25,936 bases of DNA from a virus (taxonomy: Duplodnaviria > Heunggongvirae > Uroviricota > Caudoviricetes): the IMG/VR virus record IMGVR_UViG_2778261639_000014, positions 1 to 25,936 of that record; one strand, given 5' to 3'. Numbering within the stretch: the stretch's first letter is position 1; each line of letters starts with the position of its first letter. The notes under the pieces were generated by a model that searched no databases, had not been told where the DNA came from, and was given only the letters and a program-made list of their open reading frames with translations. This document shows, piece after piece, positions 31 to 21,747 of this stretch. A program made the position numbers and the translations under genes.

Positions 31-936
31 TCACTGCTTAGCCTCTCCACCAAGGGCATTTACCAGAGCATCAACCAGGCACGAAATTTCACTGGTCAAC
101 AGGAAGAAATCTACGTCCAGTCGCTGCGCAACATCTTCACTATCAATATCAGAGTTCTGCTCAAGCAATTCATCCGCAAATTTGACGCTGGTAAGGCTGA
201 AGTTATGGTCCAGTGTAAATTTAATGCGGTTCTGCCAGTCGAGTGCCAACTTAGTGACGAGCTTGCCAGCTTCCAGGTGTGTGGAAATTTCATCGCTTCC
301 CAAATCCTGCTTTTTCACTCGGGCAATACCGCCACCCTCAAGCACTGCCTTAAGTTCTGCCGCATCCCCCATTTGAAATCCCTGTGGAGCACTACCATCA
401 CGTACCCAGTTGGTCAGCGTTAATTCAATGGGATTTTCAACACTCAGGGGAACAACAGGAAGAGAACCCAGAGACTTACGCATAAGCGCGAGCATATCCT
501 CTGCCTGCCGCGCGCTGGCATTGATATAGATACGTTTAGTTGAACCGTCGTAGATCGCCTGGATAACAGAAAACTTTGAAAAAGCCCGTGGCAGAAGAGA
601 ATGCAGAACTTCGTCTTTCAGGGAGTCCTTCTCTGTTTTCTTCAGTTTACGCGCTTGTTCTTGCTCAAGTTTTTCAATTTTTTCTTGAATAGCTCGCTGG
701 ATAACCGGCGGGTGAAGAATTTTTGTTTCGCGCTTTGCTTCAACAAGGATAAAACCATTTCCATGCATAGCGATAACTTCGGAATTATCACCAAATGGCG
801 ATACAAAACCGAACTTGGCCATATCCTGACTACCGCATGGCGTGAAAAGGATCATTTTCTTTTTATCTTCTAAGTCGGTCAGATCCGCCTCACGAGAAAG
901 TTTATAAATAGTAATGTTTTTCCAGTGCTTAAACAT
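31..936 (-). CDS. rdgC: RdgC-family recombination-associated protein (P1 hrdC-like)
   Basis: Track ORF 31..957 (TTG). Full-length similarity to RdgC as recalled from E. coli (blocks [52 protein letters not shown]). First ATG is at 936 ([16 protein letters not shown]). P1 carries an RdgC homolog (hrdC). Confidence 0.85.
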
Positions 937-1213
937 GTTGTAACCCTTGAATATCAACCACAGAAAGCTCGTCTTTGTAGAAAAAGGCTAGGTTGTGGCA
1001 CCCCCTCGTTTGAGCGTATGAGCTGGGACCAATTTCGTTCTTCCAGACAAATGGCTTCAAATCCGTACGGCGAAGCATAAAAACGCGATTTGTTCCGCTC
1101 TGATTCCCAATGAGGCAAAAGCCTTCTTTCACCTTGATAGCCTGCAAGTTGTCGAGTTCACCGCTGGTTACACGGCTATCGAACTCTTTGCGGCTTATTA
1201 GCTCCATCTGCAT
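929..1213 (-). CDS. Hypothetical small protein co-transcribed upstream of rdgC (position of P1 cra)
   Basis: Track ORF 929..1285. Start placed at ATG 1213 (GGAG 9 nt upstream) because the track start abuts the operator at 1285-1301. Stop overlaps the rdgC start by 8 nt. No recognisable domain. Confidence 0.4.
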
Positions 1214-1284
1214 CTGACGACTCCAAACAAATGCCCATCGAAGGGCGATAGCTGAATGGTACCGAAAACACGACATAAAAAACA

Positions 1285-1301
1285 ATATTTATTAGAGCAA
1301 T
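1285..1301. promoter_or_regulatory. C1 repressor operator-like site
   Basis: ATATTTATTAGAGCAAT on the + strand is the reverse complement of the asymmetric P1 C1 operator consensus ATTGCTCTAATAAATTT with one mismatch. Lies in the divergent region between the rdgC operon and the + strand genes. Confidence 0.6.
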
Positions 1302-1381
1302 TATGCAATGGTTGACGCCATGTAGACCACAAGTAACCTAAGTTAAAATAAAGAAAACCAGAGCAAATTATTGGTGATGCC

Positions 1382-1666
1382 GTGGCAAGTATTGCAACAA
1401 AAGACAGCATTTGTTCGGGGCACGGAGGATTCCCATCCAGGCCTCCTGTAGAGAGTGAACCACTACTTAAAGTCAACGGAGTCGAAGTGTTAGTTGATGG
1501 TAAGCAATATGCACAGCATACCGATGGAAACAGTACGCACGGTGGGCAAGCTATATCAACCAGGGCATGGTTTACCGTCAATAGTAAAGGGATCGTATGC
1601 GTTGGTGACCCTGTTTCATGCGGATCTACCGTAGCGTCCGGAGACGGCCTGGTTCAGGTAAGTTAG
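1382..1666 (+). CDS. PAAR-like small protein (possible spike-tip protein)
   Basis: 94-aa ORF with GTG start. Repeated elements SGHGG, VNGVEV, THGG, VNSKGIVCVGDPVSCG resemble PAAR or gp5.4-type repeats. Stop is followed 8 nt later by the next gene with an AGGAG SD. Confidence 0.4.
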   Translation: MASIATKDSICSGHGGFPSRPPVESEPLLKVNGVEVLVDGKQYAQHTDGNSTHGGQAISTRAWFTVNSKGIVCVGDPVSCGSTVASGDGLVQVS

Positions 1667-13909: not shown

Positions 13910-14506
13910 ATGGCTGTGATTCCAATGTCGTACTCCCCGGGTACTGTCGCTCGTCGATTTTCGATCCTGGACGGAGTTACCATCCAGGGTGTGCTTTACC
14001 AGGTTATATGGGATTCCAAAACCCCATTTGCAGCTGTAATAGAGGCTGCGCCTTCTGTTATCGATGGTGATATGCGGCATAAGGTTGTCGCTACTCTTGA
14101 ACTTCAACGTCGCCCGCAGCTTGAAGGCGTACTGGTAAGGAAGTTCTGGGAGGATAGCGATGTTGGCCAGATTGAAGGTATCGTGGTTGATGGAACTGTC
14201 CGGGATGTCGGTTTAGCTACTTTTGTTTACGAAACCGTAGCCTCAAAAGCTGGTGTTGTTTTGCTCAGTGATAATGAGCAATACGAAGGTGGAAAAGCTC
14301 TTTGGCAACATATCGCCCGTCGCTCTTCCGAGCTAAAAGTGTTTATCCTCGACACCGATGCTGCTCAGTATTACCCGTTTGACGGCGAACGTGTTTGCTA
14401 TGACGGGAAAAGTATTCCTGAATCCGAGATATGGAGTGAACATCCGGATCGAAGTAAGCATGGGGTTGTTCTTGTCGCAGAATCCATAACTGGAAAGGCG
14501 GCATAG
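13910..14506 (+). CDS. Hypothetical protein (orphan gene with its own promoter)
   Basis: Track ORF 13874..14506; ATG 13910 preceded by AAAGGGGGA. 198 aa. Preceded by a ~100-bp AT-rich promoter-like region. No recognisable domain. Confidence 0.55.
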   Translation: MAVIPMSYSPGTVARRFSILDGVTIQGVLYQVIWDSKTPFAAVIEAAPSVIDGDMRHKVVATLELQRRPQLEGVLVRKFWEDSDVGQIEGIVVDGTVRDVGLATFVYETVASKAGVVLLSDNEQYEGGKALWQHIARRSSELKVFILDTDAAQYYPFDGERVCYDGKSIPESEIWSEHPDRSKHGVVLVAESITGKAA

Positions 14507-14688
14507 CAGTAAAAAATTCCTTGCTCCTTAAAAGGGGAGAGGGTTAATCTACGTATGCTAAGCATAGGTATGGCCCCGGTTAATGTTAAGCGTTGTGCGG
14601 GACGCATAATGTTTACTGGGGCTTTCTTCTATCTGCTTTTCGGGGAATGCCTGAAGCAGATAGCCTCAAGCACACCGCAGCGGGTGTA

Positions 14689-14934
14689 TCAATGTCTGGC
14701 TTTTTTTCTATAGAAATCACCTGGAAGGGTGAATATCCACATCAGAAGAAATGTTGCAGCAAACATGATCCCTAATGGCCAGACCGCGCCAAAGAAAATC
14801 CATACTAAGATCTCCTCTGCTCGTTCTTTGCGGTCGATATCGACAAGCATTTTTCGGCTGATCATGTATACACAGAAGCCAATACAAACATATCCTGCAA
14901 AAGCGATCGCTAACTGTAAAAAATCAGATTGCAT
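14689..14934 (-). CDS. Small two-helix membrane protein
   Basis: Track ORF 14689..15015; ATG at 14934 preceded by GAGG. 81 aa with two hydrophobic helices (LQLAIAFAGYVCIGFCVYMI; ILVWIFFGAVWPLGIMFAATFLLMWIF) and a basic C terminus. Confidence 0.5.
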   Translation of the reverse strand: MQSDFLQLAIAFAGYVCIGFCVYMISRKMLVDIDRKERAEEILVWIFFGAVWPLGIMFAATFLLMWIFTLPGDFYRKKARH

Positions 14935-14964
14935 CTCCGACCTCAAACTGAAAACGCCAGGTGA

Positions 14965-14981
14965 CTCCAGATTAGAGCAAT
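14965..14981. promoter_or_regulatory. C1 operator-like site between repL and the small membrane-protein gene
   Basis: Core ATTAGAGCAAT (14971-14981) matches the conserved half of the C1 operator; the upstream half is degenerate. Lies 4 bp below the repL stop and ~35 bp upstream of the membrane-protein start. Confidence 0.45.
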
Positions 14982-14984
14982 CTA

Positions 14985-15830
14985 TCACCCTCTGAATCCT
15001 GCCGGTATACCCCATTGTTCGTTATCTTTATTTTTGGCTAAAACCGCATTAAGAGCTTCGTTTACCGTCATGCAATGCGGCAGATTATCGAAGTTTGATA
15101 CCCCGCCAATATCAGGAGAACGCTTGTTCTTCAGGTAAGCATATTTCCGCGCTGCCGCCTCTACTTTCTGCTTGAACTCATGTTTTTGAGCGCGTTTTTT
15201 GGATAACCGCAGATTGTCAGCCTTTGCTTTTGCCTCAGCGATCCATGAAGTCAATTTTTTGAGTCTGGTCGTTCCGGCACCGCCGGAAACTGATCTTTTT
15301 GTTTTTTTAACTTGTGACTTCTTATTCTTTATTGCCACGTCATCCTGACAGGGGGAGGGGGTATCATTTTGACATGGGGGTGTGGATAAAAAATTAAATA
15401 AAGCCAATGTCTTAGCGAGAACAGCTTTAACCTTGGTTGCCGCTGAAGAGATCTTTAATTTGCTTTCAATCAGCGCATTTTTGGCTTGTTGTGCGAAGGC
15501 CAAAAAGGATGGTGTAAACCGGTACAGGTTAGCGCGACGTTCATGGTGATCGCCGATAACAATCTCTACAGACAGAATTCCTTTGTTTACAGCTTCACGG
15601 AATGCACGAACGACGGTTGATTGGCTATAACCAGTTTCTGCCGCGATCAGGCGGTGAGGCTTGTGAATGAAGTATTCACTAGTTGTTGCCGCGAGATTTG
15701 CACATTGCGACAGGATATGCCCGGCGCTACGGGATAGACCGGAGTGTGTTACAAAGCAGGCCAATTCATAGCCAGAAAAAGTAAAATCGCTCATCGTTAT
15801 ACAGCTCAGGAAAGTGACTTTAGCCAGCAT
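14985..15830 (-). CDS. repL: Lytic replication protein RepL
   Basis: 281 aa from the track start; internal ATG at 15794 is an alternative. Matches P1 RepL as recalled (MSDFTFSGYELACFVTHSGLSRSAGHILSQ). Directly downstream of kilA as in the P1 kilA-repL operon. Confidence 0.8.
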   Translation of the reverse strand: MLAKVTFLSCITMSDFTFSGYELACFVTHSGLSRSAGHILSQCANLAATTSEYFIHKPHRLIAAETGYSQSTVVRAFREAVNKGILSVEIVIGDHHERRANLYRFTPSFLAFAQQAKNALIESKLKISSAATKVKAVLAKTLALFNFLSTPPCQNDTPSPCQDDVAIKNKKSQVKKTKRSVSGGAGTTRLKKLTSWIAEAKAKADNLRLSKKRAQKHEFKQKVEAAARKYAYLKNKRSPDIGGVSNFDNLPHCMTVNEALNAVLAKNKDNEQWGIPAGFRG

Positions 15831-15859
15831 TACAATGCTGGTGGTTCTTACTACGTCTG

Positions 15860-16660
15860 TTAGCGCGTTGCCGCGACAGGTACCAGCACACCAGCATCAA
15901 GCAATCGCTTCATCAGCCACTGCTGACCTTTGCCGGTTATACGAGTCGTGAAAGAAATCCTGCTTCCATTGCTTGTATCGATCACGGTTTCTTTAAGGGT
16001 GAAATACCCACGGGATATGTATTCTTGTTTGGGGACGTTCCTGCGTTCACCGGTTGCGATCAGAATTCCGTTATCACGCAACCAGGTGAAGAGATAGTTT
16101 TGGCCCAGGCCGAGCACTTTGGCATAGTTGCCGATTAGAACTCCGCTGGCGGTAGCAACGCGTTCGGCGAATTCGACTTTAGGTGCATCCATAAGCATTT
16201 TTTGCTCCAGCCGTTGCTTTTGCTCTGCCAGGTCGGCAGCCAAACGGAGAGCTTCAGGGAGACTCTGCGGAATAGCAGGTTGTAATCTTCCGGCTCGATA
16301 GTCGATAAATGTCTGGTTTACCTTCAGCCGAAACGCGGGAGAAATCCAGCCTGCGTACTCCACAGCGAGCAATTCATGGGCAAAAGTGCCGCCGCCACGG
16401 CCTTCGAAAGAAACTATGCAATTCTGCATAGTTTCTTTTTCAAGCTCTTCGATGAGCTGTTTGGCTGACAGCGTTCTTAGCCATTGAGCTGGCGCTTTAT
16501 GGGCACCGAGTCCGCTCGCTCTGTGTAGAGCATTAAGGTTGTAACGGCCAGCGCGGTCGGTCGTAATTTCAACACCACAAATAACAGGCAGAGTGGTTGA
16601 AGGATCGACATTTTGATGAAGGTTTGATATATTCATATCCGCATTGAATGTTTGTTGCAT
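15860..16660 (-). CDS. kilA: KilA (KilA-N DNA-binding domain plus antirepressor-type C-terminal domain)
   Basis: 266 aa with GGAGAAAAA SD. C-terminal half (IPQSLPEALRLAADLAEQK ... TGKGQQWL) is clearly paralogous to the C terminus of the upstream ant-like protein. Preceded by a C1 operator. Confidence 0.85.
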   Translation of the reverse strand: MQQTFNADMNISNLHQNVDPSTTLPVICGVEITTDRAGRYNLNALHRASGLGAHKAPAQWLRTLSAKQLIEELEKETMQNCIVSFEGRGGGTFAHELLAVEYAGWISPAFRLKVNQTFIDYRAGRLQPAIPQSLPEALRLAADLAEQKQRLEQKMLMDAPKVEFAERVATASGVLIGNYAKVLGLGQNYLFTWLRDNGILIATGERRNVPKQEYISRGYFTLKETVIDTSNGSRISFTTRITGKGQQWLMKRLLDAGVLVPVAATR

Positions 16661-16729
16661 TTTTTCTCCAAATTTGCATCAACCTTCAATCACCAGCTCG
16701 AAATGGTGATTCTTTGCACTTAGAAAACG

Positions 16730-16746
16730 AAATTTATTAGAGCAAA
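16730..16746. promoter_or_regulatory. C1 operator (P1 Op53-like) controlling kilA-repL
   Basis: AAATTTATTAGAGCAAA is the reverse complement of the C1 operator consensus with one mismatch, ~70 bp upstream of the kilA start. Confidence 0.75.
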
Positions 16747-16789
16747 TTTTTCTGGCCCGATCCAGATCGGGTTGGTCGATCTGCTCAGA

Positions 16790-16818
16790 AACCTGCCAGT
16801 TTGCTGGCAGGTTTTTTC
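16790..16818. terminator. Hairpin terminator between ant and kilA
   Basis: CCTGCCAG-TTTG-CTGGCAGG flanked by an A-run on one side and T6 on the other. Strong in the + direction, weaker (short U-tract) for the minus-strand ant transcript. Confidence 0.5.
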
Positions 16819-16823
16819 TTTTG

Positions 16824-17867
16824 TTAACCTATTGCTACTGGTTTTAACAAACCAGCATCAAGTAGCTTGCGAGTTAACCACTGCTGGCCTTTACCCGTTA
16901 ATTGGGGCGTCAGCCGTATCTGGTAGCCATTTTCATCATCCAGCACCACTTCTTTCACCGTGAAATATCCGGCGTTGATGTACTGCTGGCGCGGTACGTT
17001 TTTGCGCGCACCAAAAGCCATGAGAATGCCGTTCTGGCGCAACCATGAGAAAAGGGCGTTTTGCTTAAGTCCAACGACCTTTGCAAAGTTCCCGATCAGG
17101 ATTCCATTAGCCGCTGATACCCGGTCGGCAAAATCGACTTTAGGGGCTGCGGCCACCAGCTGTTGTTCCAACTGCATTTTCTGTTCTGCCAACTCGGCAG
17201 CCAGGCGTAGAGCTTCTGGTAATGTTTGGGGGATCGATGGGGTAGGTGAGTTTGCCTGCTGCAATTCTTCCAGTTTGTCGATCAGCGAACGGCGGACCGC
17301 TTTCGATTCGCGCGCGGCGACTCGCAGGGCTTGTTTGTAGGTCATGGTTATGACCTCAAAAGAGCGCCCGGCCCTTGTGCCATGGGATTTTACGAAAGTT
17401 TCGTAAAATTCCCCATCAAGTTCATCCTTAATTCTATTGAGAAAATCGTTATTGCGGATCTCATTTTCCCTACATAGCTTGCGCGCATCATTAACCATCT
17501 TTAACAGCGTCTGGCTGTCGATTGTGTCTCCAGTGTTGGAGATAACATTCACAGCTGGTGATGGCGTAGCTGAAGCAACAGATGCTGGTTTTTTAACATT
17601 CAAATTATTACTGGTCATTCTATGTGCCTCCTTTCTCATTTCTGCTGCCACCGTTGCGTAACGTAGACGTCCTTGTTCAATCAAATAATCCCTGATCTCG
17701 GCTATCAGTAGCCTGTTGATCACAGCCTTATCTGTTCGGGTATAAAAACGCCTGGTTATCATGAAATAGTTGGCAATTGCGCCGGGGATCTCCCGTGTCG
17801 GCATACAGGCAGTATGCAGGGCGATCGCTTCGGCTATTTCATTACGGGTGACGAGAGGTTTTTTCAT
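16824..17867 (-). CDS. ant: Antirepressor (P1 Ant-like)
   Basis: 347 aa. Central Rha/AntA-like region and C-terminal antirepressor domain shared with KilA. Preceded by an overlapping 73-aa ORF and a C1 operator, as in the P1 immI operon. Confidence 0.8.
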   Translation of the reverse strand: MKKPLVTRNEIAEAIALHTACMPTREIPGAIANYFMITRRFYTRTDKAVINRLLIAEIRDYLIEQGRLRYATVAAEMRKEAHRMTSNNLNVKKPASVASATPSPAVNVISNTGDTIDSQTLLKMVNDARKLCRENEIRNNDFLNRIKDELDGEFYETFVKSHGTRAGRSFEVITMTYKQALRVAARESKAVRRSLIDKLEELQQANSPTPSIPQTLPEALRLAAELAEQKMQLEQQLVAAAPKVDFADRVSAANGILIGNFAKVVGLKQNALFSWLRQNGILMAFGARKNVPRQQYINAGYFTVKEVVLDDENGYQIRLTPQLTGKGQQWLTRKLLDAGLLKPVAIG

Positions 17868-18085
17868 AAAACCCCCTGAACGTCAGCAGAGAAGGGGAGG
17901 TTCCAGTAACTAAGTGAATTGCGCGAGTTAGTAGAAAAACGGGCAGTAAAAATGCAGGGGCCATCAGGCAATTGAGAGCGTGCTTCGTCTTCAGTTGCTG
18001 CGATAACGAAGTGATAGTGGTGTTTTTGGCAGGAGTAAAAGCGCCAGATAAATTCAGGATGAGTAGGGGTAGGGATAGTAGCCAC
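17864..18085 (-). CDS. icd: Icd-like small protein overlapping the ant start
   Basis: 73-aa ORF with GTG start and AGGAGG SD 9 nt upstream; its stop overlaps the ant start. Same size and arrangement as P1 icd as recalled. An alternative 81-aa frame (17842..18087) is also open. Confidence 0.5.
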   Translation of the reverse strand: MATIPTPTHPEFIWRFYSCQKHHYHFVIAATEDEARSQLPDGPCIFTARFSTNSRNSLSYWNLPFSADVQGVL

Positions 18086-18270
18086 AATGGCAGCCTCCTT
18101 TTGCTAATTTAAGGAGCTACCGCGTGAGGTTCCAATCTCAATGGCGGTAGCACTGACTGGGTTGGAACTACCGGCGCAAAAGGGAACCGGCCTGCCTTTC
18201 GGCAGCCCAGCCAGCACTACCATTGATCTCGGAGCTATGTGCTACGTATGGCTGTGCGATGGCATGACAC

Positions 18271-18410
18271 AAAAAAAGACGCTTTTGGCGTCTGTGTCGC
18301 CTTTTGCATTATCCGGGGTCTCAATCCCGGCACCCGTTTTAATGAGGTGCCTGATAAGCATAAACCGAAAATGCCTCAAGGCGCAAGAGGTCAGGCTCAA
18401 TGTAACATCG
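18271..18410 (-). ncRNA. c4-like antisense regulatory RNA region (immI leader)
   Basis: Between the operator/promoter at ~18415-18441 and icd: a T-arm-like stem-loop CCGGG-ATTGAGA-CCCGG (~18311-18336) and a GACGC-TTTTG-GCGTC hairpin followed by U7 on the minus strand (~18271-18292). Fits the position of P1 c4. Boundaries not determined. Confidence 0.3.
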
Positions 18411-18424
18411 GTAGTTAAAAAACA

Positions 18425-18441
18425 CAATTCATTAGAGCAAA
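18425..18441. promoter_or_regulatory. C1 operator-like site (P1 Op51-like) upstream of the immI-like module
   Basis: Core ATTAGAGCAA at 18431-18440 within a 17-mer with ~3 mismatches to the consensus. Lies 4 bp from the pacB stop codon. Confidence 0.6.
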
Positions 18442-18444
18442 TAT

Positions 18445-19929
18445 TCATTCATTAAGCCATGCCAGAGCTTCATCAACCTGCGCTTCGTCTTCGACGCTAA
18501 GCACTTCATCCTGGGGAACATAATCCGCCAGCATAGCGAAACAATATGTATCCCAATGGTCTGGTGAGTGCAGGTTGAGTTTTTTCTTCATATCCTCCTT
18601 ACTCATCACCTTCCATTGACCTGCGGAGTTAATCCCTACAGGGATTTTCGACGCTTCCTCAATAGTTTCATTACCCTTATCCAGTCTCATACGACCAGAT
18701 TTTACGGCCTCTGCGGCTTGAACATTGGCATAAGCACGTTTATCAAAGTACAGGCTCTTATCTTCACGGCTATGCATCTTTTTACCCCAGCGTATACGCT
18801 GTACGGTAATACCATAATACTCGTACATCAGATCCGCCGTTGCTTTACCCAGGCCATCGCCGTCTATCGCTATGGTGATATTGGGGAATCGCTCAGGATT
18901 ACATTCTGCGAAAATTTTGGCGGCAAGCTGCGTTTCTGTAACGTCTGTGTATTCCAGCATTCGATAGTTGATTACACGGCGTTTATTTCGCTGGCCGGAC
19001 ACCATCATGATATTGATAACGGACTTATCCCGTCCCGTACCACCAGCAACGTCCACACATGCAAGCCAGCCCCATCCTTTGGCAATCTTGACTTTCCGCC
19101 GCGTTGCACGTTCAACCTCATCACGTCCAAGAAGGAAGCCATCCTGTGATTTAGGGAATAGGCCGCGTACCTTAATCATGTACATAGGGTTATCACGCCC
19201 GCCGTACTCCGCCAGCTTCATTTTGATAAATGCTGGCGTTACCAACGGTGATTCCTCACTGTTAAGCGTGATCGCCGTATAAACGCCATCAGGGTTACCA
19301 GGACGCTTGGCCAGTTTATGGTGTGTATCGTAGAAATAGCCGCTTGGGCGTGTAGGCTGTGACAGCAATAAGATGCGGTTATCCTGTCCGGTAAGAGCAC
19401 CGGTGATGATACCGAAAGCTCTATCACTGACACCGGAGGCTTCATCGATAATATACAGAAGATGATCTGCGTGTTCACCGGCGAGAGCTTCTTCACTTCC
19501 CAGACGAAAGCCCTTCGGTACTACAGTCCATACACCTTTACCAGTAACCTCATAGAAAGCGGTTTCTGTCAGAACAAAATAATCAGCAAGCCATGGAAAA
19601 CGGCTGGTGGCAGTAGCCCAGTTTATCTTGATGTACTTGAATATACCGGTCATTACCTGCTGAATTTTGTTCGCAACGATAATGGCTCGGGCACCGGGAT
19701 ACATGATTATGAACAACATGATCATGATAGAAGTCATGTCTGATTTCCCGGTACCGTGACCAGACGAAACAGATGTCTTGCTACCCTGTTCCTGCACAGA
19801 CTCAATAATCAGATCCTGCTGCCAGGTAGGTGTTTTGCCGAACAAAACATCAGCGGCAGCAATCCAGTCATAACGATATAGCGCCACCAGCTCGCGCCAA
19901 CGTGGATCCGTTACGCAACTTCTGGCCAT
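18445..19929 (-). CDS. pacB: Terminase large subunit PacB
   Basis: 494 aa. Walker A GHGTGKS, Walker B-like [12 protein letters not shown]-terminal nuclease-like acidic region. Start overlaps the pacA stop. Confidence 0.9.
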
Positions 19930-21122
19930 TAATCATCATCCCCGTATAGCTTGCGGGTAACTTCTTCGTCTTCCTCCTCGTCTTCGTCCAAGTCTTGTTC
20001 CAGCCATGGGTCGTTTGATACACCTTCAGTATCAACATCTCCATAACCGCCTGTATCAACGATATCGGCGATTTCTTCCCTACGCTGCTCAATCCACAAT
20101 GCGGCATCGGCGCGGCGGTTGGCGGCCCGTTCTCGCGCAACTTTGTCCAGATCTTCAAGAGAAGGGCCACCGACGGCTGTTTGCCTTTCCTCATCATCGG
20201 TATTGGTCTTAGGAGCACGCAGATCGGCTTTGATTTGCTCCAGCATCAGGGGCGGCACTTTTCCGCCATGCGCCTCGATGAATTCAGCTGCTTCCAGCAC
20301 TGACCAGTTATTTTCACGCTTTCGTTCGTATGCCAGCTTAACAATGCCAGCTTGCCCCATAGACAAAGCGTGCTTTTCCGCCTCCCGGCTTTCTTTTCGA
20401 TAGTTATTCCGGATGCTGTAAATGGTGTTGATCAGGCTGCTTATCTGCGCGGAACAGCTGTTTAGCATGCTCGCGATACGATATTCAGGCGGAGTCCCTT
20501 CATCATCGTCTTTTTGCTGATCGCGCATTTCCTGCACCAGACGAATACACGTATCCCTGGCGTTCTCCAGCATAAGGAGATGAGAGAGAGACTTTTCCAG
20601 AAGAGTGGTTTCCAGAACATCAGCCCCGGACCGACGCAACATAGCGCGCGCGGCCTTCCGCGCTTCAACGTTATCTATCAGGTAATCGCCAGCTTCGAAT
20701 TCAAAGCGTTCACCATCATCATCCAGGGTGTCGCGTTCCAGGCGATCACGTAAGGTCCGGTGGGCGCGGGTGATCACGTCATGATCATCAGAACGATCAT
20801 TTATGCGCTTATTCTGGCGCTTCGCGTTCTCGACTGCGGCACTGACAACAGCATTAACTCTTTGTTTTTCAGCCATTTCAGCCGCAATGTGATCACCTGC
20901 ATGTTGATCATTAGAGTGATCAATGATCATGCTTTTTAGTGGCTTCCTGACTGGCTTATTTGGCTTGCGGCTGTCCGCTGTCCTGGTGTCTTCTTTGAAG
21001 GCACGGAGATAACGACGTGCGGTATTAGGGTTAAGATTAAACTCGGCGGCATACTGTGCGATGGTGTAACCACCATCTCGCGCCAGGCGAGCAAAATTCT
21101 TCTTGTGATCGTCCCAGGTCAC
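19929..21122 (-). CDS. pacA: Terminase small subunit / pac-recognition protein PacA
   Basis: 397 aa with GTG start. Immediately upstream of pacB and contains the pac hexamer clusters. Acidic C terminus. Confidence 0.85.
20742..20930 (-). other. pac: Packaging site pac (TGATCA/G hexamer clusters)
   Basis: Two clusters of GATC-containing hexamers inside pacA: ~20742-20798 (CGATCA, TGATCA x2, CGATCA) and ~20889-20928 (TGATCA x4), separated by ~90 bp. Matches the described P1 pac architecture of 4 + 3 hexamers flanking the cut region. Confidence 0.75.
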
Positions 21123-21207
21123 TTATGCTTCCTTTCGTAAAAACTCTTTTTGACGCGAGGGTAACGAAAGTCACATGTCAAAAGGCCCGGAACGGGCAAG
21201 CAATCAA

Positions 21208-21660
21208 TCAGATACGTGCGGATGTGGCATTACCGTAATGACGGTGCTGACGGGCCACCTTATTGAAAAGTTGACGCGCCATTACCCAAGGCTGGTGCTC
21301 CCGGCGTTCCTTTTCGTCCTGCGTCATATAGAGTTCGTTCTGGAGTTTTTCATCAAACCGGCGCGGCGCGCGGCTGCGGCGAAAGAATTCAGGATTCAGA
21401 GAGTGGATCTGAAATCTACGTGGGCGTGTACTGTCATCAATCAAAACAGACGAATACTTAGACACAGCGATAGCCTTTAAGCGCAGATAAACGTCGCGCT
21501 TATCGACATCCAGATGCGGGTATTCCTTTTCAAGGATTGCTGCGAGTTCTTTCGCTGATAGAAGAGATTTAGTGCGGATCATGTAATCCGCAATCTCGTA
21601 CGATGTTATTCGTGAGTGATTTATTTCCATGAAGTGGCGTCCCTGCCAGTTAAGTAACAT
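21208..21660 (-). CDS. lpa: Late promoter activator Lpa (putative)
   Basis: 150-aa basic protein ~70 bp downstream of a C1 operator and immediately upstream of pacA. Position and size fit P1 lpa. Alternative start at ATG 21630. Confidence 0.55.
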   Translation of the reverse strand: MLLNWQGRHFMEINHSRITSYEIADYMIRTKSLLSAKELAAILEKEYPHLDVDKRDVYLRLKAIAVSKYSSVLIDDSTRPRRFQIHSLNPEFFRRSRAPRRFDEKLQNELYMTQDEKERREHQPWVMARQLFNKVARQHRHYGNATSARI

Positions 21661-21730: not shown

Positions 21731-21747
21731 CAATACATTAGAGCAAT
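21731..21747. promoter_or_regulatory. C1 operator-like site upstream of lpa
   Basis: 17-mer with core TTAGAGCAAT (21738-21747). Adjacent to the stop codon of the upstream gene and ~70-85 bp from the lpa start. Confidence 0.55.

Follow-up and report, generated by a model that had tools for sequence, protein, structure and literature searches.

The window, by which we mean the whole stretch of 25,936 nt that was analysed, begins with the minus-strand genes of an operon of the P1 type. Its positions 1-1400 are 98.4% identical in DNA sequence to positions 65045-66445 of phage P1 (AF234172.1, reverse strand), and P1-like elements match the same positions at 97-99% identity in 18 phage and 562 plasmid records. 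The reference annotation for P1 is GenBank AF234172/NC_005856 (Lobocka et al. 2004). For the corresponding stretch this curated record lists the operator Odmt (former Op68), the promoter Pdmt and the genes uhr, hrdC and dmt, all of which could be mapped onto the window. Operon, operator and RdgC homology are already known from the P1 literature and GenBank entries of 1989-2004, and as a discovery the uhr-hrdC-dmt operon carries little weight.

All features of the operon are encoded on the minus strand. The first gene, uhr (929-1213, 94 aa), starts with an ATG at 1213 and ends with a TAA at 931-929. It is followed by hrdC (31-936, 301 aa), a member of the RdgC family that starts with an ATG at 936 and ends with a TGA at 33-31. 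Stop of uhr and start of hrdC share the 8 nt ATGTTTAA (929-936). The third gene, dmt, starts with a GTG at 34, overlaps the TGA of hrdC by 4 nt and is truncated by the left end of the window, which holds its first 34 nt (1-34). From the P1 annotation we take its product to be a bifunctional C5-cytosine/N6-adenine DNA methyltransferase. Upstream of uhr lies a short 5' leader (1214-1255) with the Shine-Dalgarno sequence GGAG (1224-1221) 7 nt 5' of the ATG. The identities of the genes, their order uhr, hrdC, dmt and the overlapping stop and start codons (8 nt and 4 nt, respectively) are direct observations.

The first-pass annotation, which was made from the sequence alone, had described an operon that is controlled by a C1 operator and encodes a phage homolog of RdgC, in agreement with Odmt/Op68, Pdmt, uhr and hrdC of the curated P1 annotation. 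It also regarded the 94-aa ORF as translationally coupled and without assignable function, as is borne out by the 8-nt overlap with hrdC and by the entry for uhr in P1 ("unknown protein function"). Two genes and the operator were recognized correctly, but the name-giving gene dmt was missed; since dmt runs off the left edge of the window, two of the three genes could be seen. In comparison to P1, the gene order, the Uhr protein, the operator, the promoter hexamers and the gene overlaps are the same. The window differs in five amino-acid changes in HrdC, in a diverged upstream intergenic region and in the dmt gene being cut by the edge. Taking all evidence together, we are highly confident that positions 31-1301 belong to an early operon of a phage-plasmid of the P1 type, Odmt/Pdmt-uhr-hrdC-dmt, which would be silenced by C1 in the prophage and encodes an RdgC-like HrdC protein.

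The operator ATTGCTCTAATAAATAT at 1301-1285 (minus strand) deviates at one position from the asymmetric 17-bp C1 consensus ATTGCTCTAATAAATTT, which corresponds to a match of 16/17, and it coincides with the protein_bind feature Odmt of P1 (1285-1301), which is annotated as monovalent. Pdmt (1256-1285) comprises the -35 hexamer TTGTTT (1285-1280), a spacer of 18 nt and the -10 hexamer TACCAT (1261-1256), at the same positions as the sigma 70 promoter Pdmt of the P1 record (-35 at 1280-1285, -10 at 1256-1261). Odmt overlaps the annotated -35 hexamer by 1 nt. A plain consensus promoter scan missed Pdmt due to its weak hexamers; Pdmt is assigned here from the annotation of P1 and from its conservation. 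The predicted layout places the operator at the promoter, where bound C1 would interfere with RNA polymerase, and this arrangement is kept in five diverged lineages. Because the hexamers are weak and the operator is located upstream of the -35 hexamer and not over the -10 hexamer, the strength of repression cannot be read from the sequence.

Sites resembling the C1 operator with up to three mismatches occur four times in the window, compared to 0.11 expected, and none of 100 shuffled sequences reached four. The three further sites are all located on the minus strand. The first (16730-16746, one mismatch) lies 5' of kilA and the second (18425-18441, three mismatches) 5' of the c4 RNA. The third (21731-21747, three mismatches) lies between lpa and a pdcB-like DUF968 ORF, the last codons of which it overlaps. 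A terminator-like hairpin in the leader of the operon (1251-1235) was also considered and rejected, as its stability does not exceed that of shuffled sequences (z = -0.58) and no counterpart exists in the Salmonella-type and diverged relatives. No RNA family of Rfam was found within positions 1-1400.

The operon shares with the other C1-controlled early genes of P1, namely ref, ssb, ban and kilA-repL, the type of the 17-bp asymmetric operator at the promoter and the induction upon inactivation of C1. The operator of ban differs in being bivalent and in overlapping the promoter hexamers, while Odmt, as a single (monovalent) site, touches no more than the first base of the -35 hexamer. Control by C1 and induction of dmt are taken from the literature. 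According to the title of Citron et al. (1989), a reference in PMC1934351, Op68 controls the P1 dam methylase. Ronayne et al. (2016, PMC4713147) count dmt among the C1-controlled genes and observed its induction by RT-qPCR when C1 had been inactivated thermally. Both sources agree with the control by C1 that had been proposed from the sequence. A preprint of 2025 assigns hrdC and dmt to the replication and processing genes whose expression is induced in the course of a P1vir infection (bioRxiv 10.64898/2025.12.28.696737). For the element from which the window derives, control by C1 is assumed.

No c1 gene could be identified within the 25.9-kb window, which is rearranged at the place beside pacB where c1 is expected. 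The window follows the gene order of P1 up to the immI module, which contains ant (16824-17867), then icd, and the c4 RNA (18140-18227; RF01695 of Rfam, 76.7 bits), and then continues directly with pacB, pacA, lpa, pdcB and doc. In P1 c1 is located beside pacB, and some plasmids (e.g. NZ_CP071390.1) show the alternative order pacB-c4-icd-ant-c1. Beyond about 18 kb the window is collinear with no reference, and positions 14000-21500 are not covered collinearly by any record of a phage, a plasmid or a complete genome of E. coli. The records match either 14000-18375 or 16835-21500, which places the junction near 18055-18445. As they match one side or the other only, the window either arose by recombination across the immI module of about 1.5 kb or is a chimera of the assembly at this module.

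The absence of c1 from the window and the direct transition from the immI module (ant-icd-c4) to pacB-pacA-lpa at about 18.1-18.4 kb, which is collinear in no record, could indicate a rearranged or deleted derivative without c1, in which the operon would be outside C1 control. We consider such a derivative very unlikely. Only 26 kb of the element are visible, the junction lies inside a 1.5-kb module that has two alternative positions in relatives and may be an assembly chimera, and the C1 operators are intact throughout the window. Two further RNAs above the respective Rfam gathering scores were found in this part of the window, both on the minus strand: a sok antitoxin RNA at 14502-14675 near repL (RF01794, 72.9 bits) and an isrK-like RNA at 18272-18350 just 5' of the c4 RNA (RF01394, 59 bits).

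The position and conservation of operator and promoter are observed directly. The 46 nt comprising both elements (1256-1301) show no difference between the window and P1, compared to 13 differences in the next 80 nt towards upfC. More distant P1-like elements were also compared. The Salmonella-type loci (L003, L005-L008 and L070-L072) encode Uhr and HrdC proteins with 65-69% and 78-80% identity to those of the window, respectively. The corresponding values are 63% and 70% for the locus L083 and about 50% (48-51%) and 63% for the locus L079, which is located on a contig of 94,409 bp, apparently identical with that of L094 from Candidatus Pantoea alvi.

In five diverged lineages an operator-like 17-mer with one to three mismatches is found at the same position, although the remaining intergenic DNA can hardly be aligned. 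The diverged relatives also keep a TGTTTT adjoining the operator and a TAnCAT -10 hexamer at similar spacing. The same 8-nt overlap of uhr and hrdC occurs in L003, L005-L008, L070, L079 and L083, and in all relatives examined a methyltransferase with both PF00145 and PF02086 is encoded downstream of hrdC. The comparison of the five lineages supports the proposed operon layout.

Loci with rdgC of another kind were also found in viral contigs. They show about 59% identity and have neither uhr nor a methyltransferase gene after rdgC, and they lack the operator, the best sites having seven to eight mismatches. With an identity roughly at the level of E. coli RdgC they are taken to be chromosomal.

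E. coli RdgC is a ring-shaped dimer which encircles duplex DNA and inhibits RecA. HrdC of the window is 61% identical to this protein over the whole length (PDB 2OWL, E=3.1e-110) and matches the Pfam family RdgC (PF04381) with E=2.9e-95 and 319.4 bits (cutoff 25) over positions 3-298 of the 298 model positions. Among the NCBIfam models, the scores for the equivalog NF001462 (368.8, cutoff 330) and the subfamily NF001464 (281.1, cutoff 227) exceed the thresholds, while the score for the E. coli-type equivalog NF001460 (410.6) stays below its cutoff of 501.

Ten residues of RdgC that bear on ring closure and DNA loading were probed by mutagenesis (Briggs et al. 2010), and all ten are identical in HrdC. 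They include the fingertip residues for loading onto circular DNA, R97, K98, K100 and K101 of E. coli, which correspond to R96, K97, K99 and K100 of HrdC. They also include the residues of the dimer interface, with the gate R118/F120 and the horseshoe Q212/E218/H222/K227 (E. coli numbering). Because of the full-length identity of 61% and the conservation of all ten probed residues, HrdC most likely behaves like E. coli RdgC, that is, as a ring dimer that would bind DNA non-specifically and restrain RecA, with inhibition of both strand exchange and the cleavage of LexA. The control of host recombination that the first-pass annotation suggested would follow from the biochemistry of the E. coli protein. 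HrdC resembles E. coli RdgC in these residues and in the overall identity, and it passes the Pfam and one NCBIfam equivalog threshold. The two differ in that hrdC is borne by a phage-plasmid, behind a repressor operator, with uhr before it and a methyltransferase gene after it.

The five differences between HrdC of the window and that of P1 are H75P, N176D, G201D, N236K and V275A (residue in the window, position, residue in P1). The local omega value for this pair is 0.72 and is derived from only seven substitutions. In comparison with lineages in which the synonymous sites are saturated, omega for hrdC is about 0.06. For uhr, pN is 0.20 and pS 0.80 between the window and the Salmonella-type locus L003, and omega is 0.11 between L003 and L005, which is also Salmonella-type. 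Both hrdC and uhr are under purifying selection.

These values matter for the question whether hrdC could be a captured host gene in the dmt operon without real benefit, so that only dmt, by methylation of the pac site and protection, would be of importance. It would fit this explanation that uhr and hrdC were non-essential for lytic growth of P1 in a genome-wide CRISPRi screen (PMC10695390), that hrdC has lost its 3' part in some plasmids, their match starting only at window position 386, and that a broken hrdC allele is on record. The strong purifying selection across lineages with saturated synonymous sites speaks against it, and so does the full-length, uninterrupted hrdC match in essentially all P1-like viral contigs examined. 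We therefore regard a dispensable passenger gene as quite unlikely.

The broken allele is due to a 1-nt deletion in a run of five G (C5 on the coding strand, window positions 709-713), by which the hrdC reading frame of phage vB_EcoM-673R5 and of plasmid pAPEC201602 is split. Disabling mutations in close relatives had been named beforehand as a finding that would speak against the operon as first described. Such an allele does exist, but it is restricted to the one phage and to five of the 546 plasmid records with this segment, which match the frameshift (G4) allele exactly, and hence it mostly fails to refute that description. The intact P1 allele is matched exactly over 80 nt by 476 of the 546 records. 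Three of the five frameshift plasmids have neighbouring accessions (CP127257, CP127299 and CP127308), suggesting a single sequencing project, and in the record of vB_EcoM-673R5 dmt is fragmented as well. For the G4 allele, an error in sequencing the homopolymer and a genuine mutation are equally likely, and the place in a homopolymer together with the neighbouring accessions points to such an error or to one clone. In the window positions 709-713 read GGGTG on the plus strand; the run is interrupted, His75 is encoded instead of Pro75 of P1, and hrdC is intact.

From these data the following course of events can be proposed. In the plasmid prophage C1 would bind to the single asymmetric 17-bp Odmt, which overlaps the -35 hexamer of a weak promoter by one base, and Pdmt would be off. 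Upon inactivation of C1 during infection or induction one mRNA would be made, from which the three genes would be translated in a coupled manner via the 8-nt overlap of uhr and hrdC and the 4-nt overlap of hrdC and dmt. The P1 annotation, published work and conservation speak for these steps. Dmt would methylate the replicating phage DNA. The HrdC ring dimer would encircle double-stranded DNA without sequence preference and thereby limit RecA filaments and strand exchange on replicating P1 genomes. It could top up a host function that is titrated by the amplification of phage DNA and keep RecA loaded by RecFOR from diverting P1 DNA. Uhr would be a lineage-restricted small protein that is made together with HrdC. 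Supplementing the host RdgC during phage DNA amplification is a plausible benefit of HrdC. We know of no P1 phenotype for this operon, and in the CRISPRi screen all three genes, uhr, hrdC and dmt, were non-essential.

One point against this explanation is that a RecA-restraining HrdC is not an obvious fit alongside Ref, a C1-controlled nuclease of P1 that needs RecA filaments (PMC4713147). The question is raised why a phage that makes a RecA-dependent nuclease simultaneously makes a probable restrainer of RecA. HrdC might instead act like RexA of phage lambda, as a non-specific DNA binder that biases the switch between lysis and lysogeny or has a part in anti-defence or exclusion, perhaps jointly with Uhr. 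RexA shares the fold of RdgC and acts on the lambda switch (PMC11077077), and Uhr is lineage-specific; its gene is coupled to hrdC in every case and is missing at the rdgC loci presumed to be chromosomal. All the same, we judge a RexA-like role to be highly improbable and prefer an RdgC-like HrdC that would restrain RecA.

The Uhr protein of the window is identical to that of P1, and throughout the lineages examined its size is 92-94 aa. No match to Uhr was found in Pfam, NCBIfam or PADLOC, and a profile search of the PDB gave only a match at chance level (E = 1.1). When 1.84 billion representative proteins were searched exhaustively with an HMM, only Uhr proteins of the P1 type and frameshifted fragments were returned, and a word-indexed protein search gave the same picture. 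When one genome per species was searched (185,579 species), Uhr was restricted to two genomes of Escherichia (one E. coli and one Escherichia sp.), Candidatus Pantoea alvi and one contig binned as Bacillota. The latter (L092, JAFAFU010000017.1) is a 5.8-kb contig of a metagenome-assembled genome. As its Uhr is 99% identical to that of the window, it probably represents P1-like DNA of E. coli that was binned wrongly or is a contamination.

An AlphaFold2 model of Uhr, calculated from an alignment of four sequences, has a pLDDT of 66.6, with about 80 for residues 1-50 and a poor C-terminal half, and shows a mixed alpha+beta structure. With this model Foldseek found no match below E = 1e-3 in the PDB or BFVD, the best values being 9.5e-3 and 4.3e-3, respectively. 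The top hits, the N-domain of FtsH and a small protein of the 60S ribosomal subunit, were rejected as generic small alpha+beta folds.

PHROG 2213 and RefSeq phage records carry the label "nucleoside triphosphate pyrophosphohydrolase" for Uhr. Neither a MazG or NUDIX domain nor any other NTP-PPase domain could be identified in the protein, and sequence and structure searches gave no significant match. The label is therefore unsupported; it appears to be unfounded and is being propagated.

Uhr might be a dedicated partner of the phage copy of RdgC and act, for instance, as its loader, as a specificity factor or by inhibiting the RdgC of the host. Such a role, which we hold to be rather unlikely, is suggested by the occurrence of Uhr in P1-like elements of Enterobacterales only, its constant size of 92-94 aa, the purifying selection and the same 8-nt overlap with hrdC even at about 50% identity. 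If it were true, the pair would do something that chromosomal rdgC without uhr does not, such as steering the restraint of RecA to phage DNA or shielding phage DNA from the RecA-dependent nuclease Ref.

Some of the diverged lineages contain additional ORFs in the operon (L083:4903-5478, L079:4980-5576 and L070:7212-7910). An ORF of 191-198 aa is located between hrdC and dmt, with 4-nt overlaps in L083 and after a gap of 73 nt in L079, and an ORF of 205-232 aa lies just 3' of dmt. None of these additional ORFs has a match in Pfam. The ORF of 232 aa gave a faint SAVED-like match in PADLOC (E = 0.0033).

The diverged stretch between the operator and upfC comprises window positions 1303-1380. Over these roughly 80 nt it differs from P1 at 13 positions, compared to about 1% in the flanking genes, and the changes create a TTGACG at 1312-1317 on the plus strand. 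The stretch could be a patch acquired by recombination, or it could be a control region of upfC that evolves fast. The gene upfC itself (1382-1666, plus strand) is divergent from the operon and encodes 94 aa with a sub-threshold match to the PAAR motif (24.3 bits, cutoff 27); the P1 record describes upfC as similar to gp5.4 of phage T4.
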